Assembly (NCBI GenBank): GCA_965198695.1
Contig: CBDAPW010000002.1
Span: forward strand, 37,768-101,767
Origin: Solirubrobacteraceae bacterium
Lineage (GTDB): Bacteria > Actinomycetota > Thermoleophilia > Solirubrobacterales > Solirubrobacteraceae
DNA: 64,000 nt
Direction: 5' to 3'
Made by a program: the position numbers and the translations under genes. Positions 23,896-33,505 of this stretch are shown here, one piece after another; position 1 is the stretch's first letter; the number at the start of each line of letters is the position of its first letter. The notes below the pieces were generated by a model that worked only from the letters and a program-made list of their open reading frames with translations, was not told where the DNA came from and ran no database searches.

Positions 23896-23992
23896 TCACA
23901 CGATCTCCTGGGCGCCAGCTTATCCGCGGATCAGCCTGTGGGGGTTAGGATGCCTGATGAGAGGAGAAGTCGGTGATCCCTGGCGGTTCACA

Positions 23993-25246
23993 GTGACGCA
24001 GGACAACCCACAGCACAATCCGTGGGTCGGCGCGTCGTTCGGGAGAACGTCGCTCGACCTGGCGAAGCGGCTGTCGGACGCCTATGAGCATGAGCTGGCC
24101 GGCGACGCCGAGCCCGAGCGTCCGCTGCTGCGCCCGGTGGTGACCTCCTCCTGGCAGCGCTCGCTCCACGCCGGGGTCGACCCCGAGCACAACGCGGCGC
24201 CGAGTGACGGATCGCCAGATGCCCCGCTGGACCGCTGGGCGGTGCACCCGCTCAATCCGTTCGTCGAGGTGGTCGAGTCGATGCTCGGCTCCTTCGCCTA
24301 CGACGCCGGTCACATCGTGGTGATCGCCGACCACGACGGATGTCTGCTCTGGTCGATGGGCCACCCCAAGGTGCTCATCGCCTCAGAGACAATCGGCTTC
24401 ACCCCCGGTCATGTGTGGACCGAGGAGGCCGTCGGGACCAACGGCGTGGGCACGGCCCTGGCCGTCGACCATCCGGTGCAGATCTTCGCCTCCGAGCACT
24501 TCAAGCGGCCCGTCCACGCCTGGGTCTGCTCCGGCGCACCCATCCATGACCCCGCCACCGGCCAGGTGCTCGGCGTCATCGACGTCTCCAGCGGGATCCG
24601 GGCCGCCCATCCCTACTCCCTGGCCATGGTCTCGGCCACCGCCAAGATGGTCGAGACGCTGCTGGCCAACCAGCAGGCGATCGCCACCGAGCGCCTGCGC
24701 GCGCGGTTCTACGAGCTGGTCGCCCGCCGCCGCGGCGGGGCGCGCGCGCTGATCGATCCGCGGGGGCGCGTGATCGCCAGCCATCCCGACGGCTGGCTCC
24801 CGGGCCCGCTCCTGGCGGCCGGTCCCCATCGCTGGCTCGCCCCCGGCAGCGCGCTGATCCTCGACGGCGAGCCGTTCGCCGACGACTGCTTCCTCGTCGG
24901 GGCCAGCACCGGAACCCAGGCGCCGACCAGCCTGCCGACGCTCGAGGTGCGCCGCCTGGACCGCCGGCGTCTGAGCGTGTCGATTCACGGTGATGACATC
25001 GCGCTGTCTCCGCGGCGCAGCCAGCTGCTGGCCCTGCTGGCGCTCGCCCCCCAGGGCACCCACGGCGCCGCCCTGGCCCGGACCCTCTACGGCCCCGGTG
25101 ACCACGAGGTCGCCCTGCGCGCCGAGGTGTCGCGCCTGCGCCGCCAGCTCGGCGGGGTGATCGCCACCAACCCGTATCGCCTGCTCGCGGAGGTGCGCGC
25201 CGATCCGGCCGTGCTCGCCGGCGTTGCAACCCCGCTGCAACGTTGA
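23993..25246 (+). CDS. GAF-domain transcriptional activator with C-terminal HTH (aldehyde/alcohol utilisation type)
   Basis: SSWQRS, WTEEAVGTNGVG, WVCSGAPIHDP, LRAEVSRLRR..NPYRL. Start uncertain (23957 or 23993). Confidence 0.88.
   Translation: MTQDNPQHNPWVGASFGRTSLDLAKRLSDAYEHELAGDAEPERPLLRPVVTSSWQRSLHAGVDPEHNAAPSDGSPDAPLDRWAVHPLNPFVEVVESMLGSFAYDAGHIVVIADHDGCLLWSMGHPKVLIASETIGFTPGHVWTEEAVGTNGVGTALAVDHPVQIFASEHFKRPVHAWVCSGAPIHDPATGQVLGVIDVSSGIRAAHPYSLAMVSATAKMVETLLANQQAIATERLRARFYELVARRRGGARALIDPRGRVIASHPDGWLPGPLLAAGPHRWLAPGSALILDGEPFADDCFLVGASTGTQAPTSLPTLEVRRLDRRRLSVSIHGDDIALSPRRSQLLALLALAPQGTHGAALARTLYGPGDHEVALRAEVSRLRRQLGGVIATNPYRLLAEVRADPAVLAGVATPLQR
25222..25242. promoter_or_regulatory. 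Probable activator site CGTTGCA-N7-TGCAACG
   Basis: Perfect 7-bp inverted repeat inside the last codons of the regulator, about 110 bp upstream of ALDH. Confidence 0.65.
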
Positions 25247-25352
25247 GCGGGGCGCCGTGAAGGCGCAGTCTCCTCAGCGTGCACATGGCCCGGCCTCACA
25301 GGCCGGGCATAACCGTGTGCCCCCACAGAGGAACCCAAGGAGAGAACACCTG

Positions 25353-26849
25353 ATGGCAATCGCAGATCCCCCCAAGGCCGGCGACGCGACCGAGCGCTTC
25401 CTCGCATCGCCCAAGTGGCTGCTGATCGACGGGGAGTGGCGCAACGCCGCCTCCGGCAAGACCTTCGAGACCTACGACCCGGCCACCGGTGAGGTGCTCG
25501 CCCGCGTCGCTGAAGCCGGCGATGAGGACGTCGACGCCGCCGTCGCCGCGGCCCGCCGCGCCCTGGAAGGGCCGTGGGGCAAGATGGGCGGCTCTGAGCG
25601 CGGGCGCATCATCCACCGCCTCGGCGACCTGATCTCCGAGCACGCCGAGGAGCTGGCCGAGCTCGACTCCCTCGACAACGGCAAGCCCAAGGCCGTCGCA
25701 CTCGCTGCCGACACCCAGAACGCCGCCGACATCTTCTGGTACATGTCGGGCTGGTGCACCAAGCTCAACGGTCAGACGATGTCGCCGACCGTCCCCTATA
25801 TGCCCGGTCAGGAGTTCCACGCCTACACCACGCGTGAGCCGGTCGGCGTGGTCGCCCAGATCATTCCGTGGAACTTCCCGCTGCTCATGGCGGCCTGGAA
25901 GGTCGCCCCGGCGCTGGCCTGTGGCAACACGATCATCCTCAAGCCGGCCGAGCAGACGCCGCTGTCGGCGCTGCGTCTCGGTGAGCTGGCCCTCGAGGCC
26001 GGTGTGCCCGAGGGTGTATTCAACGTGCTCACCGGGTTCGGCGATGTCGGCGCGGCGCTGTCGGCTCACCCGGGGGTCAACAAGGTCGCCTTCACCGGCT
26101 CCACCGAGGTGGGCAAGCTGATCGTCAAGGCGGCGGCCGGCAACCTCAAGCGGGTCTCCCTCGAGCTCGGCGGCAAGTCCCCGAACATCATCTTCGACGA
26201 CGCCGACATCGACGCGGCGATCGCCGGAGCCGCCCAGGGCATCTTCTTCAACCAGGGTGAGGTGTGCACCGCGGGCTCGCGCCTCTACGTCCAGGACCGC
26301 CACTTCGACCAGGTGGTCGAGGGCGTGGCGAACGCCGCCAAGGCGATCAAGGTCGGCCACGGCATGTCCCCGGACACCGAGATGGGCCCGCTGGTCTCCC
26401 AGGAGCAGTTCGACAAGGTCACCGGCTACCTGGCCAAGGGTCCCCAGGAGGGTTCGCGGGCGCTGACCGGCGGCTCGGCCATCGACGGGCCCGGCTGGTT
26501 CGTGGAGCCGACGGTGTTCGTCGACAACAAGGCCTCCAACGCCCTCGTGCGCGAGGAGATCTTCGGTCCGGTCATCTCGGCCATGCCGTTCTCAGACCTC
26601 GACGACCTGGCCGCCCAGGCCAACGACTCGGACTTCGGCCTCGCCGCCGGGGTGTGGACCCGGGACGTGTCCAAGGTGCACGCCATGTCCAAGCGCATCC
26701 AAGCCGGGACGATCTACGTCAACGCCTACCACGTGTACGCGGCCGAGCTGCCCTTCGGCGGCTACAAGCAGTCGGGCTGGGGTCGTGAGATGGGCGCCGA
26801 GGTGCTTAACAGCTACCTCGAGACCAAGACGACGATCGTCGCCCTGTAA
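25353..26849 (+). CDS. NAD-dependent aldehyde dehydrogenase (aromatic aldehyde type)
   Basis: [20 protein letters not shown], catalytic Cys in [17 protein letters not shown] 25353 after AAGGAGAG. Confidence 0.95.
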
Positions 26850-26908: not shown

Positions 26909-28075
26909 TCAGAACGTCGCGGTGGCCGGCAGTCCCGCGTAGTTCTCCGCCAGGCTCAGCGCCGCGGCATGGGAGCGGGAGAGGTAGTCCAGGCGTGAGA
27001 GCTGCAGGCGGCTCTGGAACTCACCCGCGCCGAGGTCATGCAGCATCTGGGTCATGTAGTTGGAGAACTCCTCCGCTCGCCACACCCGCTGCTGGGCGTG
27101 GGCGCTGTAGCCGGCCAGCCCGGCGTCATCCCCGGACCCGTAGTGCGCCTGGAGGGCGGCGGCGAGCAGCCGCACGTCGTTGATGGCCAGGTTCATGCCC
27201 TTGGCGCCGGTCGGGGGCACGATGTGGGCGGCGTCGCCGGCGAGGTGCAGGCGGCCGTAGCTGAACGGCGTGGCCACGAAGCTGCGCATCGGGGTGATGC
27301 CCCGCTCGAAGATCTCCCCACGGTTGACGCCGCCGAGGCGGACGTCGAGCTCATCCCAGATGCGATCGTCGGGCCAGTCCGCGAGGTCGGTGTCGTTCGG
27401 GACCTGGAGGTAGAGGCGGCTCACGCTGGGCGAGCGCATGGAGTACAGGGCGAAGCCGCGCTCGTGCCAGGCGTACATCAGCTCCCGCGGCTCGGCGTGG
27501 GCGAGGATGCCCAGCCAGCTGAAGGGATAGACGTACTCGTACTCGGTGATCGCGCCGGCGGGCACCGCCGCACGGCACACGCCGTGGAAGCCGTCACAGC
27601 CGGCGAGGAAGTCACAGCTCAGCTCGTGCTCGGCACCGTCGTGGCGGTAGGTGATGCGCGGAGTCGTCTCGAGGTCGCTGACGGCGGTGTCCTCCACGCC
27701 GAAGTGGATCGGCACCCCGCGGTCAAGCAGCGCGGCGATCTCGTCCTTGACCACCTCCTGCTGGCCGTAGATCATGATTCGCCGGCCGGTGAGCTCGGTC
27801 ACGTCGATGTGGATCTCGCGCTCGGCGAAGCGCAGGTACACCCCGCTGTGATCGATGCCCTCGCGGTCGAGGCGTTCGGCCACGTCGAGTGCGTGCAGCA
27901 GGTCGATGGTGTTCTGCTCGAGCAGGCCGGCGCGCACGCGACCCTCGACGTACTCACGCTCGCGGCCCTCGAGCACCACGCAGTCGATGCCCGCCTTGTG
28001 CAACAGCAGCGCGAGGGTGAGGCCGGCGGGACCGGCCCCGACGATCGCCACCTGGGTGTGGGCGCGCTCGGTCAT
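26909..28075 (-). CDS. pobA: 4-hydroxybenzoate 3-monooxygenase
   Basis: RVRAGLLEQ, ELMYAWHERGFAL, GDAAHIVPPTGAKGMNLA, AENYAGLP. Start ATG 28075. Confidence 0.92.
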   Translation of the reverse strand: MTERAHTQVAIVGAGPAGLTLALLLHKAGIDCVVLEGREREYVEGRVRAGLLEQNTIDLLHALDVAERLDREGIDHSGVYLRFAEREIHIDVTELTGRRIMIYGQQEVVKDEIAALLDRGVPIHFGVEDTAVSDLETTPRITYRHDGAEHELSCDFLAGCDGFHGVCRAAVPAGAITEYEYVYPFSWLGILAHAEPRELMYAWHERGFALYSMRSPSVSRLYLQVPNDTDLADWPDDRIWDELDVRLGGVNRGEIFERGITPMRSFVATPFSYGRLHLAGDAAHIVPPTGAKGMNLAINDVRLLAAALQAHYGSGDDAGLAGYSAHAQQRVWRAEEFSNYMTQMLHDLGAGEFQSRLQLSRLDYLSRSHAAALSLAENYAGLPATATF

Positions 28076-28353
28076 CGCGCCTCCTGGGGGTGCTGGGCCA
28101 GCGCCTCGACGTGGACGTCGGTGTAGGGCCACATGGGGAGGGAGACGAGCAGGTCGTGCAGCTCGGTGGCGTCGCTCGCCTCGTACAGCCCCACCGTGGC
28201 GTTGCGTCCCGGCACGCGCCACAGGCGCTTGAGGTGGCCCGCGGCGCGCAGCTCCATCGCCCGCTCGCGCTCGCCGGCGCGCAGTTGGCGGATCTCCTCC
28301 GCGTCGATCCGCGTGGCGGCGTGATTCTCGGTCCGAACCAGGAACTCGGCCAT
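28072..28353 (-). CDS. Muconolactone delta-isomerase family protein
   Basis: EFLV...ERERAMELRAAGHLKRLWRVPG...ELHDLLVSLPMWPYTDVHVEALAQHP, 93 aa. Confidence 0.85.
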   Translation of the reverse strand: MAEFLVRTENHAATRIDAEEIRQLRAGERERAMELRAAGHLKRLWRVPGRNATVGLYEASDATELHDLLVSLPMWPYTDVHVEALAQHPQEAR

Positions 28354-28355
28354 GG

Positions 28356-29072
28356 TCAGTCTCCTCTCGTCATCGACAGTTCGTCCAACCGCTTGGCCAG
28401 GGGACCCGCGGCGGTGGTCATGGCCTGATGGCCGGTGCTCAGCTCCGACACCGGCCAGCCCCGGGCCTGGGCCTTCTCGCGCTGGGGGCGGAACACGCGC
28501 ATCCAGTCCACGCACTCGATGTAGGCCGACGCGATGGTGAGGGACTCAGGCGTCACCCGCGCCGGCTCGTTGAAGGTCCGGTAGGGGTGGGGCACCATCA
28601 GCTGGGTCAGCCAGGCGACGTCCGCCGGGTCGGTGACCCCGAGCACCTCGAGTCCGCGCGGCGGGATCAGCCAGCCGAAGCCACGCTCGTGCACCGACTC
28701 CGCGTAGTGATGGGCGATCTGGGGCGGCTGCTCCTCGGTGGCGGACTGGCCGTCGTCGGGCAGGAACGCGTCGAGGTAGACGAGCTGGGCGATCAGGTCC
28801 GGGCGGGCGCTGGCCACCCCCGCGATGACCTGTCCGCCGTAGCTGTGGCCGACCAGGGTCACCTCGGCGAGGCGCTCGTTGGCCAGCACCGCCAGCACAT
28901 CCGCGACGTGGGTGGACAGGCTCACCTCGGGGCTGAGCAGGTGGGCGCGCTCTCCCAGGCCGGTCAGCGTGGGGGCGAACACCGCGTGGCCGGACGCGCG
29001 CAGGCGCGGGATCACCCGCCCCCAGCTCCAGCCGCCCTGCCACGCCCCGGCGACGAGCACGAAGGTGCTCAC
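28356..29072 (-). CDS. Alpha/beta hydrolase (methylesterase/EstC-like)
   Basis: GAWQGGWSW, GHSYGG nucleophile elbow, YLDA, TGHQAM. GTG 29072 overlaps the upstream stop. Confidence 0.9.
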   Translation of the reverse strand: MSTFVLVAGAWQGGWSWGRVIPRLRASGHAVFAPTLTGLGERAHLLSPEVSLSTHVADVLAVLANERLAEVTLVGHSYGGQVIAGVASARPDLIAQLVYLDAFLPDDGQSATEEQPPQIAHHYAESVHERGFGWLIPPRGLEVLGVTDPADVAWLTQLMVPHPYRTFNEPARVTPESLTIASAYIECVDWMRVFRPQREKAQARGWPVSELSTGHQAMTTAAGPLAKRLDELSMTRGD

Positions 29073-30088
29073 GCGGGCTCCCCCGCCCACAGCGCGAAGG
29101 CCAATCCGATTCCGGTTCCCGCCGGCGTCCGGTAGACGGGCACGTATTCGTCCCAGCGCACCGGCAGGTCCACGCAGGCCCCGGCGGTGGCGATCCAGTT
29201 GCGGATCTCCGAGCTGCCCCCGTTGAGGAGGGCCGGGTCGATCGTCCTCAGCGCCTCGGCGTCGGAGCTGCGACACGCCTCGAGCACGCGCCGGTCGAGC
29301 GCCTCGTCGGTGGTGAAGTGACTCAGGCCGCCGGAGGCGACCACCGCCACGCGCAGATCCTCCGGATAGGACTCGACGGCACGGCGGATGGCCAGGCCGA
29401 GGTCGTAGCTGCGCGGGACGGTCGGCTGATTCGGCGGCCAGTAGGTGTTGACGAGGACAGGGATCTGGGGAATGGCCCCGGGCCGACCCATCAGCTGGGT
29501 CTCCATGATCCCGAAGGAGTGCCCGAGGCCGGTGACGCCGTCGTCGGGGACGTCGGAGACCGCCGTGATGTCGAAGCCCTGGCGCACCAGGTCGCCCACG
29601 AGGTGGGTGCCGAGCCCGGCGTGACCGGGGAAGGTGTGGCGGGCGTCCATCGCGTATCCGGCCATCATCGGGCTGACGTCACCGAGCACCTGCTCGTAGC
29701 TGGCGAAGCGCATCGAGGTGCCCATGGTGAGCGTGGCCCCGTGGTAGATCGCCAGGGCGGGCACGTTGGAGTGGCTGAGCAGCTCCTCCTGGTCGTCACC
29801 GAAGGTGATGAGGACGTCGGGCTCCAGCGCCGCCAGGTCTGCCCGCAGACGCGCCACGGCGCTCACCACCTGCTCGATCTGGTGTCCGAGATGTTCGGGC
29901 GTCGCTTGGTCGGCGTGGTCGTTGCCCTGGATCTGCTCCAGCTCCGCGTAGGTGACGGGCCGGCCGGCCTTGTCCCGCAGGTGCGGGTTGGCCCGGTCGA
30001 TCGCGTCGTGGGCGAGCCACAGCTCCGACTCGGGGGTGACCACCAGTGAGCTGTGCGACATGCCGACGCCAGCCACGATCTTTGCCAT
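29069..30088 (-). CDS. Class III (LigB superfamily) extradiol dioxygenase, LigZ-like
   Basis: GMSH, FGDDQ, GHSFG, VLVNTYWPPNQPT, ASGGLSHF, SEIRNWI, YVPVYRTPAGTG. Confidence 0.88.
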   Translation of the reverse strand: MAKIVAGVGMSHSSLVVTPESELWLAHDAIDRANPHLRDKAGRPVTYAELEQIQGNDHADQATPEHLGHQIEQVVSAVARLRADLAALEPDVLITFGDDQEELLSHSNVPALAIYHGATLTMGTSMRFASYEQVLGDVSPMMAGYAMDARHTFPGHAGLGTHLVGDLVRQGFDITAVSDVPDDGVTGLGHSFGIMETQLMGRPGAIPQIPVLVNTYWPPNQPTVPRSYDLGLAIRRAVESYPEDLRVAVVASGGLSHFTTDEALDRRVLEACRSSDAEALRTIDPALLNGGSSEIRNWIATAGACVDLPVRWDEYVPVYRTPAGTGIGLAFALWAGEPA

Positions 30089-30116
30089 TCATCTCTCCTC
30101 TACTCGGCAGACCTCT

Positions 30117-30138
30117 GTATGTACATACTTACATACTT
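30117..30138. promoter_or_regulatory. PadR box ATGT-N8-ACAT within palindrome/tandem repeat
   Basis: ATGT(30119-22)-ACATACTT-ACAT(30131-34), GTATGTACATAC palindrome, ACATACTT x2. Confidence 0.7.
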
Positions 30139-30164
30139 ACGGGCCATGCAATACCGTGAGGCCC

Positions 30165-30776
30165 GTGAACCTGCGCTTCGCGTTGCTGGCGATCCTCTCG
30201 GCTGCCCCGCGCACCGGGTATGACCTGCTCCAGATCTTCGATGCGTCCGTCGGCTTCGTCTGGCACGCGCCCCACACCCAGATCTATCCCGAGCTGCGGC
30301 GCATGGAAGCGGAGGGGCTTCTGGCCAGCACGGAGATCCCGCGCGGGCCCAAGGCCAGCAAGCGTGAGTACCGGATCACCGACGCGGGCCTGGCGGAGCT
30401 GCGCCGGCTGGCCTCCACGCCGGTCGAGCCGCCGCGCGAGAAGGACGCCTACCGGCTCAAGGCGGCGTACCTCGAGTTCGCGGACCCCGACGGCGCCCGC
30501 GCCCAGTTCGAGTTGCACATCGCCCACTACGAGCACTGGCTGGCGGTCTGGCGCCAGACCGCCGAGGCCATCGGCACCGGCGTCGATCCGGTGGTGAACC
30601 AACGCCTGGAGAACCGACCCCCGGAGGAGCACGAGCTCGCGGTGGCCGCGAAGGTGTTCGCCTACGAGGGGCTGATCGCCCGGGCGCAGTTCGAGGTCGC
30701 CTGGGCCCGACGCGGGCTCGAGCTGCTCGACCGGCTCGGCGCCGAGACGGGGCAGACCCCCGCCTCGGCCTCCTGA
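30165..30776 (+). CDS. PadR family regulator (subfamily 1, with C-terminal domain)
   Basis: LRFALLAIL..RTGYDL..SVGFVWHAPHTQIYPELRRM..KREYRIT..G. Confidence 0.93.
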   Translation: MNLRFALLAILSAAPRTGYDLLQIFDASVGFVWHAPHTQIYPELRRMEAEGLLASTEIPRGPKASKREYRITDAGLAELRRLASTPVEPPREKDAYRLKAAYLEFADPDGARAQFELHIAHYEHWLAVWRQTAEAIGTGVDPVVNQRLENRPPEEHELAVAAKVFAYEGLIARAQFEVAWARRGLELLDRLGAETGQTPASAS

Positions 30777-30788
30777 GCCGGGCCACGC

Positions 30789-31937
30789 TCAGGCGTCGAT
30801 GGCGCCCCACACGTCGGTGGCGACCTCGACGAGCAGCTCCAGCTTGGCCTTCTCGTCGTCGATGCTCAGGTGGTTGCCCTCCTCGGTGGAGGCGAAGCCG
30901 CACTGGCCCGAGATGCACAGCTGGTCGATGTCGACGTACTGGGCAGCCTCGTCGATGCGCCGCTTGAGCAGCTCCTTGTCCTCGAGCTCGGGGCGCTTGG
31001 TGGTGACGATGCCGAGCACCACCATCTTCCCCTTGGGGACGAAGCGCAGCGGCTCGAAGCTGCCCGAGCGGGCGTCGTCGAACTCGAGGTAGTAGGCGTC
31101 GACGGCCAGGTCGTTGAACAGCGCCTCGGCCACGAAGTCATAGCCGCCCTCGGCCGCCCACATCGACTGGTTGTTGCCGCGGCACAGGTGGGTGCCGATG
31201 CGCATGTCCTCGGGGCGGTCCCCGATCGCCCGGTTGATCACCGAGATGTAGTGCTCGTGGAGATGGTCGGGATCCCCGCCGATGGCGGCGATGTGCTCGC
31301 GCTGGGCGGGATCGTTGACGTAGGCGAGGCTGGTGTCGTCGAGCTGGAGGAAGCGACAGCCGAGGTCATAGACGCCGCGCATCTGCTTGGCGTAGGCGGC
31401 GGCCAGGTCGTCCCAGAACACGCTGATGTCGGGGTAGACGGAGGGGTCGATGGAGGAGTTGCCGCCGCGGTAGTGGACCATGCTCGGTGACGGGTCCGTC
31501 AGCTTGGCCACCTCGCCCGGCTCGAGATGATCGCGGACGAAGCTGAAGTCGTCGGCGAAGATCGTCTGATCGATGCCGATCCGGCCGTCGACCCGCATGG
31601 CCGGCGGGGCGTAGTCGTACTCGCCCTCGTCGCTCTTGAACTGCACGTGCAGCGACTCGCCGGAGACCTGGTGGACGCCCTGGAGCTGGTAGATGAAGTC
31701 CATGTGCCAGGAGGTGCGCCGGAACTCGCCGTCGGTGATCGTGCGGATCCCGGCGGCGCGCTGGAGCGCGATGACGTCGAGGATGGCCTGGTCCTCGACG
31801 GCCTTCAACGCTGCCCGGTCGATCTTCTGCGCCTTGAAGTCGGCGCGGGCCTGGTGGAGTTCGGGCGGGCGCAGCAGGCTGCCGACGTGGTCGGCGCGGA
31901 ACGGGGGATAGGTGCGGGTGTGGGTGGTGGTGCTCAT
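30789..31937 (-). CDS. Cobalamin-independent methionine synthase catalytic-domain-only protein (YxjG/H-like)
   Basis: PPFRADHVGSLLRP, TDGEFRR, zinc ligands HLCRGN, EFD, CGFAS. 382 aa, half the size of MetE. Confidence 0.88.
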   Translation of the reverse strand: MSTTTHTRTYPPFRADHVGSLLRPPELHQARADFKAQKIDRAALKAVEDQAILDVIALQRAAGIRTITDGEFRRTSWHMDFIYQLQGVHQVSGESLHVQFKSDEGEYDYAPPAMRVDGRIGIDQTIFADDFSFVRDHLEPGEVAKLTDPSPSMVHYRGGNSSIDPSVYPDISVFWDDLAAAYAKQMRGVYDLGCRFLQLDDTSLAYVNDPAQREHIAAIGGDPDHLHEHYISVINRAIGDRPEDMRIGTHLCRGNNQSMWAAEGGYDFVAEALFNDLAVDAYYLEFDDARSGSFEPLRFVPKGKMVVLGIVTTKRPELEDKELLKRRIDEAAQYVDIDQLCISGQCGFASTEEGNHLSIDDEKAKLELLVEVATDVWGAIDA

Positions 31938-32024: not shown

Positions 32025-33505
32025 CTACTGCCAGGCGGAGACGGGCCGCTGCTCGAGCAGCCGCAGCCAGACCTCCGACACCGTCGGGTAGGACGGGACG
32101 GCGTGCCAGAGATCCTCCAGCGTGACCTTGCCGATGATGGCCGTGGTGGCCGAGTGCAGCAGCTCCTGGACGTCGGAGCCGACGAAGGTGGCGCCGACGA
32201 GCGTGTCGCTGGCCGAATCGATCACCAGCTTGGCCCGGCCCACGTAGTCATCGCGCAGCAGGCTCGAGCCGGCCACGGCGGCGAGGTCGTACTCGAGGGC
32301 CTCCACGTTGATGCCGCGCTCACGCGCCTGGGCCTCGGTCAGTCCCACGGTGGCGACCTGGGGATCGGTGAAGATCACGCCGGGGACGATGGCTCCGTCG
32401 GCGCGGTCGGTGTAGTGCGAGCCGTCGGTGGGCCGCCCCTCGGCGCGGGCGCCGATCACCGCTCCGGCGATCCGGGCCTGGTACTTGCCCATGTGGGTGA
32501 GCAGGGCGCGGCCGGTGATGTCGCCCACGGCGTAGAGCCAGTCCTCGGCCCCGATCACCGCGAGGTGGTCGTCGGTGCTGACGAAGCCGTGGCTGGCGGC
32601 GGTGTCGATGCCGAACTGATCGAGACCCAGGCTGGCCGAGTTCGCCCCCGGCCGGCGGCGACGACGATCTCGTCGACCTCCAGGGTCTGCCCGCCAGCGC
32701 TGATGGTCACCGGGCCGCCGTGGATGTGGCCGATGCCGGTGTCGCTGGCGCCCTCCCGGCTGACCCCCTGCGTCTCGGTGCCGGTGAGCACGGTGATGCC
32801 GAGCTCGCCGAAGCGCTCGGTGATGATGTCGGACACAAAGGGCTCGCGGCCGCCCAGCAGGCCGTCCTCGCGGACGATCAGCGTCACCTGCGCGCCGAGG
32901 CCGTTGAACCAGGTGGCGGCCTCACAGGCGACCACGCCGCCGCCGATGATCGCCACCCGCGCCGGGACCTCGGTCAGGTTGGTGGCGTCGCGGGAGGTCC
33001 ACGGCAGCGCCTCGGCCAGGCCCGACACCGGCGGGATGCTGGCCACGGTTCCCGTGGCGAGCACCACGGCTTGGCGTGCGGCGATGAGTTGGGTCCCACC
33101 GGCGTTGAGCGCGACCTCGACGAGCTTGGGTCCGGCCAGGCGTCCGGCGCCGCGGACGACGTCGATGTTCGCCCCGGTCGCCCACTTCACCTGGCTGGAG
33201 TCGTCCCGGTTGTGAGTGAACTGGTCCCGCCGGGCGAGCACCTTGGCCACGTCGATCGGCCCGGTCGGCGCCGAGCCGGGCAGCGCGCCCACCGTGTCGT
33301 GGATCTCCACCGGGTGCAGCAGCGCCTTGGAGGGCATGCAGGCCCAGTAGGAGCACTCGCCGCCGACCAGCTCGGCCTCGATCATCACCGCGGTGCGCTC
33401 GGAGCCCTGGATCGCGTACTGGGCGACGTTCTCACCCGGGGGGCCACCGCCGATCACGACGACGTCGTAGGTGATATCCGGCTGGGCCTGGCTGGCGGTG
33501 GTCAA
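32025..33505 (-). pseudogene. Class I pyridine nucleotide-disulfide oxidoreductase with a 1-nt frameshift near 32645 (pseudogene or sequencing error)
   Basis: GGECSYWACMPSK, GGGVVA. Frame resumes as NSASLGLDQFG...YAVGD...VIFTDPQ...YPTVSE. Span 1481 nt = 3n+2. Confidence 0.8.

Follow-up and report, generated by a model that had tools for sequence, protein, structure and literature searches.

The window analysed here is a 64,000-nt stretch from a Solirubrobacteraceae genome of 4.2 Mb and ~70% G+C. It carries a minus-strand operon (26909-30088) whose core is a trio of genes encoding a single-chain extradiol dioxygenase, an alpha/beta hydrolase and a small protein of the muconolactone-isomerase (MIase) fold. 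This trio probably stands in for the standard middle steps by which hydroxybenzoates derived from lignin are degraded through meta-cleavage. In the reading that we hold to be somewhat better than an even proposition, the product of ring fission, CHMOD or 2-pyrone-4,6-dicarboxylate (PDC), is a C6 ester or lactone that the hydrolase would open, and the MIase-fold protein then carries out an isomerisation for GalB/GalC-type steps. In sphingomonads and pseudomonads, the meta-cleavage routes for syringate, vanillate and protocatechuate have been mapped well, in Actinobacteria hardly at all. Members of this phylum dominate many soils, and Rhodococcus opacus and Streptomyces serve as chassis for lignin valorisation.

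Organisation of the operon and conservation of the trio

The operon runs from the dioxygenase gene through the hydrolase and MIase-fold genes to pobA, with padR divergent on the plus strand. The features of the locus are:

29069-30088, minus strand: LigZ/DesZ-type single-chain LigB-superfamily extradiol dioxygenase, 339 aa (PF02900)
28356-29072, minus strand: SABP2/methylesterase-type alpha/beta serine hydrolase, 238 aa (Abhydrolase_6)
28072-28353, minus strand: MIase-fold protein, 93 aa (PF02426)
26909-28075, minus strand: PobA-type 4-hydroxybenzoate 3-monooxygenase, an accessory feeder, 388 aa (NF006091)
30117-30128: perfect 12-bp palindrome GTATGTACATAC, candidate operator for PadR within the 67 bp that separate the divergent genes
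30156-30776, plus strand: PadR-family regulator (PF03551), predicted GTG start
30789-31937, minus strand: core-MetE-like (YxjG/YxjH-type) Zn methyltransferase, convergent with padR (NF005085)

The GTG start of the hydrolase gene overlaps the TGA stop of the dioxygenase gene (GTGA), the MIase-fold gene begins 2 nt past the hydrolase stop, and pobA starts within an ATGA overlap; the four operon genes are translationally coupled. The map of open reading frames agrees in this with the initial annotation of the DNA, which had described four coupled genes divergent from padR. The padR start given there was too early, the first in-frame start being the GTG at 30156. Consensus scans found no intrinsic terminator after pobA.

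The conserved core of the locus is the trio of dioxygenase, hydrolase and MIase-fold protein, not the four genes. A second trio is present on another contig of the same genome (C6), with 81, 75 and 71% identity for dioxygenase, hydrolase and MIase-fold protein, respectively; this copy is without pobA and has a GntR-type regulator. The trio recurs elsewhere too, in no fewer than nine further contexts (L004, L084, L085, L087, L088, L119, L120, L121/122, L123 and L140), with an altered gene order in L123. In Conexibacter, a single operon encodes a zinc alcohol dehydrogenase (Zn-ADH), a PIG-L protein, an RraA-type aldolase, a LigB-like protein, the hydrolase and the MIase. By comparison, pobA, previously counted into the conserved unit, is found with the trio nowhere but in the window and its closest relatives, L004 and L119. 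No LigX, LigW, LigY-like partner or Rieske gene was found with any trio or in the window.

Around the C6 trio lie genes for an MFS transporter, a LigM equivalog (878 bits vs 580) and MetF-like, FchA-like, FolC, PurU and FolD proteins. The same trio is also near a block (C6:148584-151907; L003:15585-18908) encoding a DUF6282 protein, a PIG-L (GalB-type) protein, a CHA aldolase (177.2 bits vs 179) and a VOC dioxygenase resembling catechol 2,3-dioxygenases. A search of the window itself returned no homologue of PcaH/G/B/C/D, LigA, LigY/LigJ, PrpF, GalB or CHA aldolase, so that the earlier statement that it holds no intradiol dioxygenase, cycloisomerase, LigA or LigY is confirmed for the window. 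Elsewhere the genome has a full pcaIJFHGBDC cluster and the GalB/GalC-type pair on contig C6; it has no PrpF (LigU/GalD), no LigA and no further LigB or MIase gene.

Two side observations concern these loci. The DUF6282 protein, encoded upstream of PIG-L, carries a DTHVHV motif; as a candidate LigI-type PDC hydrolase it gave no Amidohydro_2 or PDB match. VOC dioxygenases 36-48% identical are found near RraA or PrpF genes at L006, L007, L009, L011 and L134. As for L004 (CAZZVR010000050.1), its proteins are 82-92% identical to those of the window, with which it is fully syntenic; its metagenome-assembled genome (MAG) is labelled Burkholderia sp. PAMC 26561, and the contig is probably mis-binned.

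The dioxygenase and its family

The dioxygenases of the trio form a lineage of their own. In a maximum-likelihood tree, the ten dioxygenases linked to a hydrolase and an MIase fall in one clade (SH-aLRT 99), sister to a small clade from Solirubrobacterales-type MAGs that is linked to LigY and RraA genes, while canonical LigB is a distant outgroup. The named reference in this tree was LigB, and the clades were read by their gene contexts.

The window protein belongs to the LigB superfamily (PF02900, 63.4 bits vs a gathering score of 26.3), and no NCBIfam dioxygenase model reaches its cut-off (NF009903, 51 vs 317; NF009912, 44 vs 837). With these cut-offs missed and no LigA in the genome, it falls outside the LigAB protocatechuate 4,5-dioxygenases. 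The motifs quoted in the initial annotation (VNTYWPPNQPT, SGGLSHF, SEIRNWI and YVPVYRTPAGTG) are all present in the translation. The AlphaFold2 (AF2) model (pLDDT 91.9) has LigB (1bou_B; E 2.5e-17, TMt 0.72) and DesB as its best Foldseek matches, at 19-20% identity. The view that this is no ordinary LigAB enzyme is borne out by that identity, by the missing LigA and by the outgroup position of LigB in the tree, where clustering with ordinary protocatechuate 4,5-dioxygenases was not seen. JGI names close homologues, one of them 97% identical, 3-O-methylgallate 3,4-dioxygenase/DesZ, a name that serves as a lead only.

The active site was compared with that of LigB, a 2-His-1-carboxylate set (His12, His61, Glu242) with catalytic His195. 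In the hhalign alignment, His12, His190 (LigB His127), His257 (His195) and Glu294 (Glu242) are kept in the window protein, but opposite His61, an iron ligand of LigB, stands Gln100 (codon at window 29789-29791), within a GDDQxE motif that is near-invariant. Gln stands in place of this second iron-ligand His across the dioxygenase family, whose metal site may, to judge from the aligned residues, differ from the classical 2-His-1-carboxylate triad.

The family numbers more than 3,400 proteins, with matches in at least 590 species genomes of Actinomycetota, Chloroflexota and Pseudomonadota. Neighbours of the wider family, taken as 40-50% identity to the window protein, were counted in 80 loci:

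Amidohydrolase, nearer LigY (285 bits) than LigJ (221 bits): 35 of 80 loci
VanA-like Rieske oxygenase: 31 of 80 loci
RraA-like aldolase: 30 of 80 loci
RidA protein: 22 of 80 loci

Because a LigY-like amidohydrolase typically flanks its members, the wider family is LigZ-like by context. The likeness to LigZ put forward earlier stands to that extent; it does not extend to the LigY and LigX partners, which are not found with the trio. Clusters of LigY-like amidohydrolase, VanA-like Rieske oxygenase, RraA-like aldolase and RidA (L006-L083) occur in Burkholderiales, Sphingomonadales, Rhodospirillales and Actinomycetota, and may constitute a widespread, little-studied LigZ/LigY-type pathway.

The hydrolase and the MIase-fold protein

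The hydrolase (Pfam Abhydrolase_6) has a nucleophile, Ser77 in a GHSYGG motif, and a His215 that are invariant in 11 orthologues; the acid of the triad is uncertain, as Asp189 is not invariant among them. The top 50 Foldseek matches of its AF2 model (pLDDT 80.3) are all of SABP2, MES16, PNAE, HNL, BioH3 or PytH type. No C-C hydrolase of meta-cleavage products (BphD/MhpC/XylF type) appears among these 50 or among the best 60 of 91 PDB sequence matches. The fold with its small cap and the Ser-His(-Asp) triad features place the protein with the SABP2/MES-type carboxyl(methyl)esterases, and it is not of PcaD type (23.5 bits vs a cut-off of 256).

Hydrolase orthologues (53-72% identity) always adjoin a LigZ-like or LigAB dioxygenase. 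Homologues were found in 31 of the 401 genomes sampled across the phylum; of these, just the ones that reach ~45% identity and have an MIase beside them count as members of the module, and matches of 36-47% lie in unrelated contexts. Homology to DesC was considered and set aside, three sphingomonad/caulobacterial genomes having given only generic alpha/beta similarity (best 31 bits).

The MIase-fold protein scores 100 bits with PF02426 and 80.6 with the CatC equivalog model TIGR03221 (cut-off 130.6). Its Glu28 aligns with Glu27 of ClcF/MLI, which we take to be the catalytic residue. It shares the Pfam fold and this Glu with CatC and is not a member of that family, given the short equivalog score and a context without catA/catB of the ortho pathway. 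The only two MIase genes of the genome are those in its two trios. Subfamily members from Rhodococcus, Streptomyces, Geodermatophilus and other cultured actinobacteria are 67-74% identical; the subfamily occurs in just 4 of the 401 sampled genomes and is absent from two congeners. The catC-like gene is co-conserved, strictly so with the hydrolase and with the dioxygenase clade of the trio; the initial annotation had named the opposite outcome as one that would count against its proposal.

A MIase gene beside an alpha/beta hydrolase gene mimics catC-catD, the catalytic Glu is kept, and the genome has pcaIJF. These features would suit an ending of the CatC/CatD kind, in which the fission product lactonises to a compound of muconolactone type, the MIase-fold protein moves its double bond and the resulting enol-lactone is opened by the hydrolase, giving 3-oxoadipate for pcaIJF. 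No cycloisomerase is linked to the trio, however; the genes that accompany the module are those of a GalB-type hydratase and a CHA aldolase and not pcaIJF, and the two proteins miss the CatC and PcaD cut-offs. We regard such an ending as very improbable.

The hydrolase-MIase pair beside canonical LigAB

Evidence from other actinobacteria places the pair in the pathway. Orthologous hydrolase (53-58% identity) and MIase (~70%) pairs follow canonical LigAB in R. opacus, Streptomyces and metagenomic contigs. On plasmid pRop44186_a of R. opacus DSM 44186, an operon encodes FolC-like, PabB, GCV_T, MetF, PurU, FolD, LigA, LigB, hydrolase and MIase proteins, and the divergent operon PIG-L, CHA aldolase, a LigM-type GCV_T and an SDR. 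The R. opacus protein at L221:1737-3140 (WP_222820324.1), annotated as hypothetical, belongs to the LigM-type GCV_T O-demethylases and shares 72% identity with the LigM equivalog encoded in the window genome. In Streptomyces the order is VanB, VanA, hydrolase, MIase, SDR, LigA, LigB; on the metagenomic contigs, LigAB and hydrolase genes are joined by that of a LigM-type demethylase, and in some cases by MIase and SDR genes. The SDR (WP_120661650.1 in R. opacus), 56-68% identical among three LigAB-type clusters, is a candidate LigC analogue.

Further arrangements were seen in two lineages. In another family of the same phylum, the MIase and hydrolase genes stand with those for LigB, PIG-L, RraA and a TRAP transporter and with a MetE-like gene. 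Geodermatophilus has RraA, hydrolase and MIase genes in one operon, next to an equivalog of oxalomesaconate (OMA) tautomerase (496 bits) and to LigJ (572 bits). Because these two genes adjoin the pair, the Geodermatophilus route is read as passing through oxalomesaconate; and because the pair follows canonical LigAB with demethylases, it is read as acting after ring cleavage.

This placement bears on the route first put forward for the operon, in which the substrate would be either a biphenyl dimer from lignin, similar to OH-DDVA, or an ester of hydroxybenzoate such as a paraben, and the hydrolase would de-esterify the aromatic or replace LigY on the biaryl fission product. The dioxygenase family is indeed LigZ-like by context, SABP2-type enzymes hydrolyse aromatic methyl esters, and PobA would act on paraben-released 4-hydroxybenzoate. 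A dimer is nevertheless hard to reconcile with the partners of the trio, namely PobA and LigM, which feed in monomers, and a lower pathway of GalB/GalC type, with no LigX, LigY or LigW and no Rieske gene beside the trio. An esterase for hydroxybenzoate esters is equally hard to reconcile with a pair that elsewhere follows canonical LigAB, in the company of vanillate-/syringate-type demethylases, and is thereby placed after ring cleavage; pobA, moreover, is not co-conserved with the trio. We therefore consider the route quite improbable in either form.

Proposed pathway and points that weigh against it

The trio is proposed to be the upper module of a 4,5 (meta) cleavage of the protocatechuate/3-O-methylgallate type, repressed by PadR through the palindrome 5' of the dioxygenase gene. 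In the first step, the dioxygenase, whose family and fold are those described above, would open its putative substrate, a 4-carboxycatechol, beside the 4-OH. The hydrolase would then cleave a C6 ester, either the methyl ester CHMOD, formed from 3-O-methylgallate (3MGA), or the lactone PDC. The product would be 4-carboxy-2-hydroxymuconate/oxalomesaconate; because CHMOD and PDC are C6 esters of the same acid, the hydrolase is read as freeing it. In the third step, the MIase-fold protein may perform, on 4-carboxy-2-hydroxymuconate or oxalomesaconate, an allylic or tautomeric 1,3-proton shift that yields the substrate of the hydratase. The PIG-L (GalB-type) hydratase and CHA aldolase, whose genes lie beside the C6 trio, would complete the sequence to pyruvate and oxaloacetate. 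PobA in this operon and LigM by the paralogue would act as interchangeable feeder enzymes.

Within this scheme, we put the methyl ester derived from 3MGA at slightly above even as the substrate of the hydrolase, and the PDC lactone at slightly below. The scheme as a whole draws support from the modelled hydrolase, whose fold is of methylesterase/carboxylesterase type, and from the trio, which is a unit, is duplicated, has dioxygenases of one clade and is linked to lower-pathway genes. Also in its favour are the pairs that follow canonical LigAB, the oxalomesaconate genes in Geodermatophilus, the lack of PrpF, LigA and any further LigB or MIase gene in the window genome, and published cases in which a ring-cleavage dioxygenase works with an alpha/beta hydrolase and a small isomerase to turn CHMOD into OMA (PMC12314914; bioRxiv 10.1101/160747). 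We lean modestly towards the view that the hydrolase and MIase-fold protein are non-homologous counterparts of LigI/LigU, DesC/DesD and MgaC/MgaD. Among the papers that could be searched, none was found to link MIase-family proteins to syringate, CHMOD or LigAB clusters, in keeping with the earlier suggestion of an undescribed route.

Several points weigh against ester or lactone opening. PobA and LigM point to protocatechuate, whose fission product, CHMS, needs oxidation before any ester exists, and neither the SDR nor the Zn-ADH of Conexibacter has an orthologue in the genome (best 33-39% identity), nor was a LigC candidate found for the conversion of CHMS to PDC. The 3MGA route is left without a source, as no DesA or VanA homologue was found in the genome, so that both routes have a gap there. 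The aldehyde dehydrogenase encoded next to the operon in the window is not conserved in L004, and pcaHG in the genome already serves protocatechuate. Two contigs that carry LigAB and the hydrolase, L141 and L145, have no MIase. Because LigB His61 is replaced by Gln, the chemistry of the dioxygenase is deduced from its fold. Lastly, because dioxygenases of the sister clades pair with a LigY-like C-C hydrolase, the hydrolase of the trio could have taken over the C-C role of LigY.

This last point belongs to a different scheme, a hydrolytic branch of protocatechuate 4,5-cleavage. Such a branch was proposed from enzymology in the 1960s and, to our knowledge, has never been assigned genes. The dioxygenase would form CHMS, and the hydrolase, as a C-C enzyme, would release formate and 4-carboxy-2-hydroxypenta-2,4-dienoate (CHPD). 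The MIase-fold protein would ketonise the dienol, a GalB-type hydratase would give 4-hydroxy-4-methyl-2-oxoglutarate (HMG), and the aldolase would yield two pyruvates. No dehydrogenase is required here, the feeders PobA and LigM make protocatechuate, and among the LigZ-like trios a dehydrogenase is linked only in Conexibacter; the sister clades, with their RraA-like aldolase besides the LigY-like hydrolase, pair these functions with the same dioxygenase family. The fold of the hydrolase nevertheless matches esterases only, with none of the C-C types among its top 50 Foldseek matches. The conserved SDR of the LigAB-type clusters argues for an oxidative step, and the OMA tautomerase and LigJ by the pair in Geodermatophilus argue for an oxalomesaconate route. 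On balance this hydrolytic scheme is unlikely; if true, it would mean that an esterase-fold enzyme was recruited as a C-C hydrolase and the MIase fold as a dienol ketonase.

If ester or lactone opening, the reading preferred here, is correct, the consequences are threefold. The genes would be targets for PDC or OMA production in actinobacterial hosts. The automatic annotation 'muconolactone isomerase' would be corrected as a marker of the ortho pathway. The MIase fold would also be a third independent evolutionary solution, after the GST and SnoaL folds, to the isomerase step that follows hydrolysis of CHMOD or PDC.

PadR and its candidate operator

The regulator scores 55 bits with PF03551, and its GTG start leaves the 67 bp between the divergent genes as the control region. 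The palindrome GTATGTACATAC in this region has ATGT/ACAT half-sites and is followed by two copies of ACATACTT; it was missed by the repeat finder because its arms are only 6 bp long. With 0-1 mismatch, it recurs 40-90 bp upstream of the dioxygenase start in L004, L119, L120, L121/122 and L140, and it was not found at the padR-less trio loci L084, L123 and the C6 copy. padR itself adjoins the trio in the window and in seven other contexts (L004, L085, L087, L119, L120, L121/122 and L140). Control of the trio by PadR is supported because the palindrome is kept in PadR-linked loci and absent from padR-less ones. With a padR gene and an ATGT/ACAT-type palindrome, the locus has the sequence features of a predicted PadR-regulated phenolic-acid operon. 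A consensus scan found no sigma-70-type promoter in the divergent region.

PobA and aromatic feeders

PobA exceeds the cut-off of NF006091 (532 vs 351) and falls below that of the strict equivalog TIGR02360 (467 vs 539). It matches PDB 7on9 with 398 bits, flavin-side and substrate residues being kept. The initial annotation was right that the substrate residues are retained: equivalents of Tyr201, Ser212, Arg214, Tyr222, Pro293, Thr294 and Tyr385 are conserved against solved structures. In an unlikely variant, the PobA homologue would hydroxylate vanillate to 3-O-methylgallate, the methoxy group being lost as methanol only after ring cleavage; if true, this would make a vanillate route free of O-demethylase.

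A second PobA paralogue is encoded on contig C6 (152804-154012; 42% identity, TIGR02360 371 bits), adjoining an IclR regulator and a set of MaoC, SDR, amidohydrolase and CoA-ligase genes.

Neighbouring genes

The MetE-like Zn methyltransferase at 30789-31937 exceeds the cut-off of NF005085 (433 vs 313) and matches PDB 1ypx with 317 bits. Its homologues adjoin the module or related dioxygenases in L004, L005, L043, L142 and L124/L125 (G095/G052). In 7 of 80 genome loci such a gene lies at most 10 kb from the dioxygenase family, a frequency estimated to be far above chance, and it also adjoins hydrolase-MIase modules in unrelated lineages. The protein might be an unrecognised methyl-transfer (O-demethylation) partner. 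DmtS was considered as a MetE-like demethylase and ruled out, DmtS being VanA-like.

A pyridine-nucleotide-disulfide oxidoreductase lies at 32025-33505 on the minus strand as two overlapping open reading frames of 316 and 177 aa. The syntenic oxidoreductase of L004 is a single frame of 498 aa, and the split in the window is either a frameshift or an assembly error. On the other side of the operon (23960-26849, plus strand), a MimR_N/GAF-type regulator gene and an aldehyde dehydrogenase gene are convergent with pobA. The best family match of the dehydrogenase is the StyD-type phenylacetaldehyde dehydrogenase. Together with its GAF/MimR-type regulator it was considered as the missing CHMS dehydrogenase and rejected; it is kept in L119 and absent from L004.

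Comparison with known systems

The trio shares parts with several characterised systems. With CatC-CatD it has in common the MIase fold, the catalytic Glu and a neighbouring alpha/beta hydrolase; it differs in that the partner is an extradiol dioxygenase, and in the pca cluster of the genome these steps fall to PcaC and PcaD. As in SYK-6 LigZ, the dioxygenase is a single-chain LigB-superfamily protein of ~340 aa, a likeness that rests on architecture and family context. In contrast to the LigZ-LigY system, a LigY-like partner is no longer present in the trio clade, and LigX and LigW are absent as well.

Two published systems take CHMOD, the fission product of 3MGA, to OMA by means of an alpha/beta hydrolase and a small isomerase whose fold is unrelated. 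In Pseudomonas sp. NGC7, MgaAB, MgaC (PSN_2689) and MgaD take 3MGA from syringate through CHMOD and CHMA to OMA, after which GalD, GalB and GalC act (PMC12314914). There too, a dioxygenase, an alpha/beta hydrolase and a small isomerase feed a PIG-L GalB hydratase and GalC aldolase, and the NGC7 isomerase is partly dispensable, as the MIase here is absent from some contigs. The proteins differ in kind: the dioxygenase here is single-chain and of LigZ/DesZ type, whereas MgaAB is a LigAB-like heterodimer, and the isomerase has the MIase fold, in contrast to the SnoaL/NTF2 fold of MgaD; the window genome has no GalD. DesC (Saro_2864), an alpha/beta hydrolase and predicted methylesterase, and the isomerase DesD convert CHMOD to OMA (bioRxiv 10.1101/160747; PMC8091115). 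Their genes are clustered with ligM, metF and folate one-carbon genes, as are the C6 trio and the R. opacus cluster, but DesD is a GST-type isomerase and the isomerase here has the MIase fold.

The proposed intermediates, PDC/OMA, KCH and CHA, are those of the canonical LigAB-LigC-LigI-LigU-LigJ-LigK pathway, and the CHA aldolase is a near-equivalog. Unlike in that pathway, LigC, LigI (an amidohydrolase), LigU (PrpF) and LigJ are absent, unrelated folds taking their place; the window genome is also without LigA, and no dehydrogenase was found in it. To judge from this module, actinobacteria may rely on unrelated enzymes for two or three steps of meta-cleavage, namely a hydrolase of esterase fold, an isomerase of MIase fold and, where the cluster is of LigAB type, an SDR. 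In its number of steps the R. opacus set fits the canonical pathway, and beside LigAB itself it maps onto it one-to-one if the SDR takes the part of LigC, the hydrolase that of LigI (or DesC), the MIase that of LigU (or DesD) and PIG-L that of LigJ, with the aldolase as LigK.

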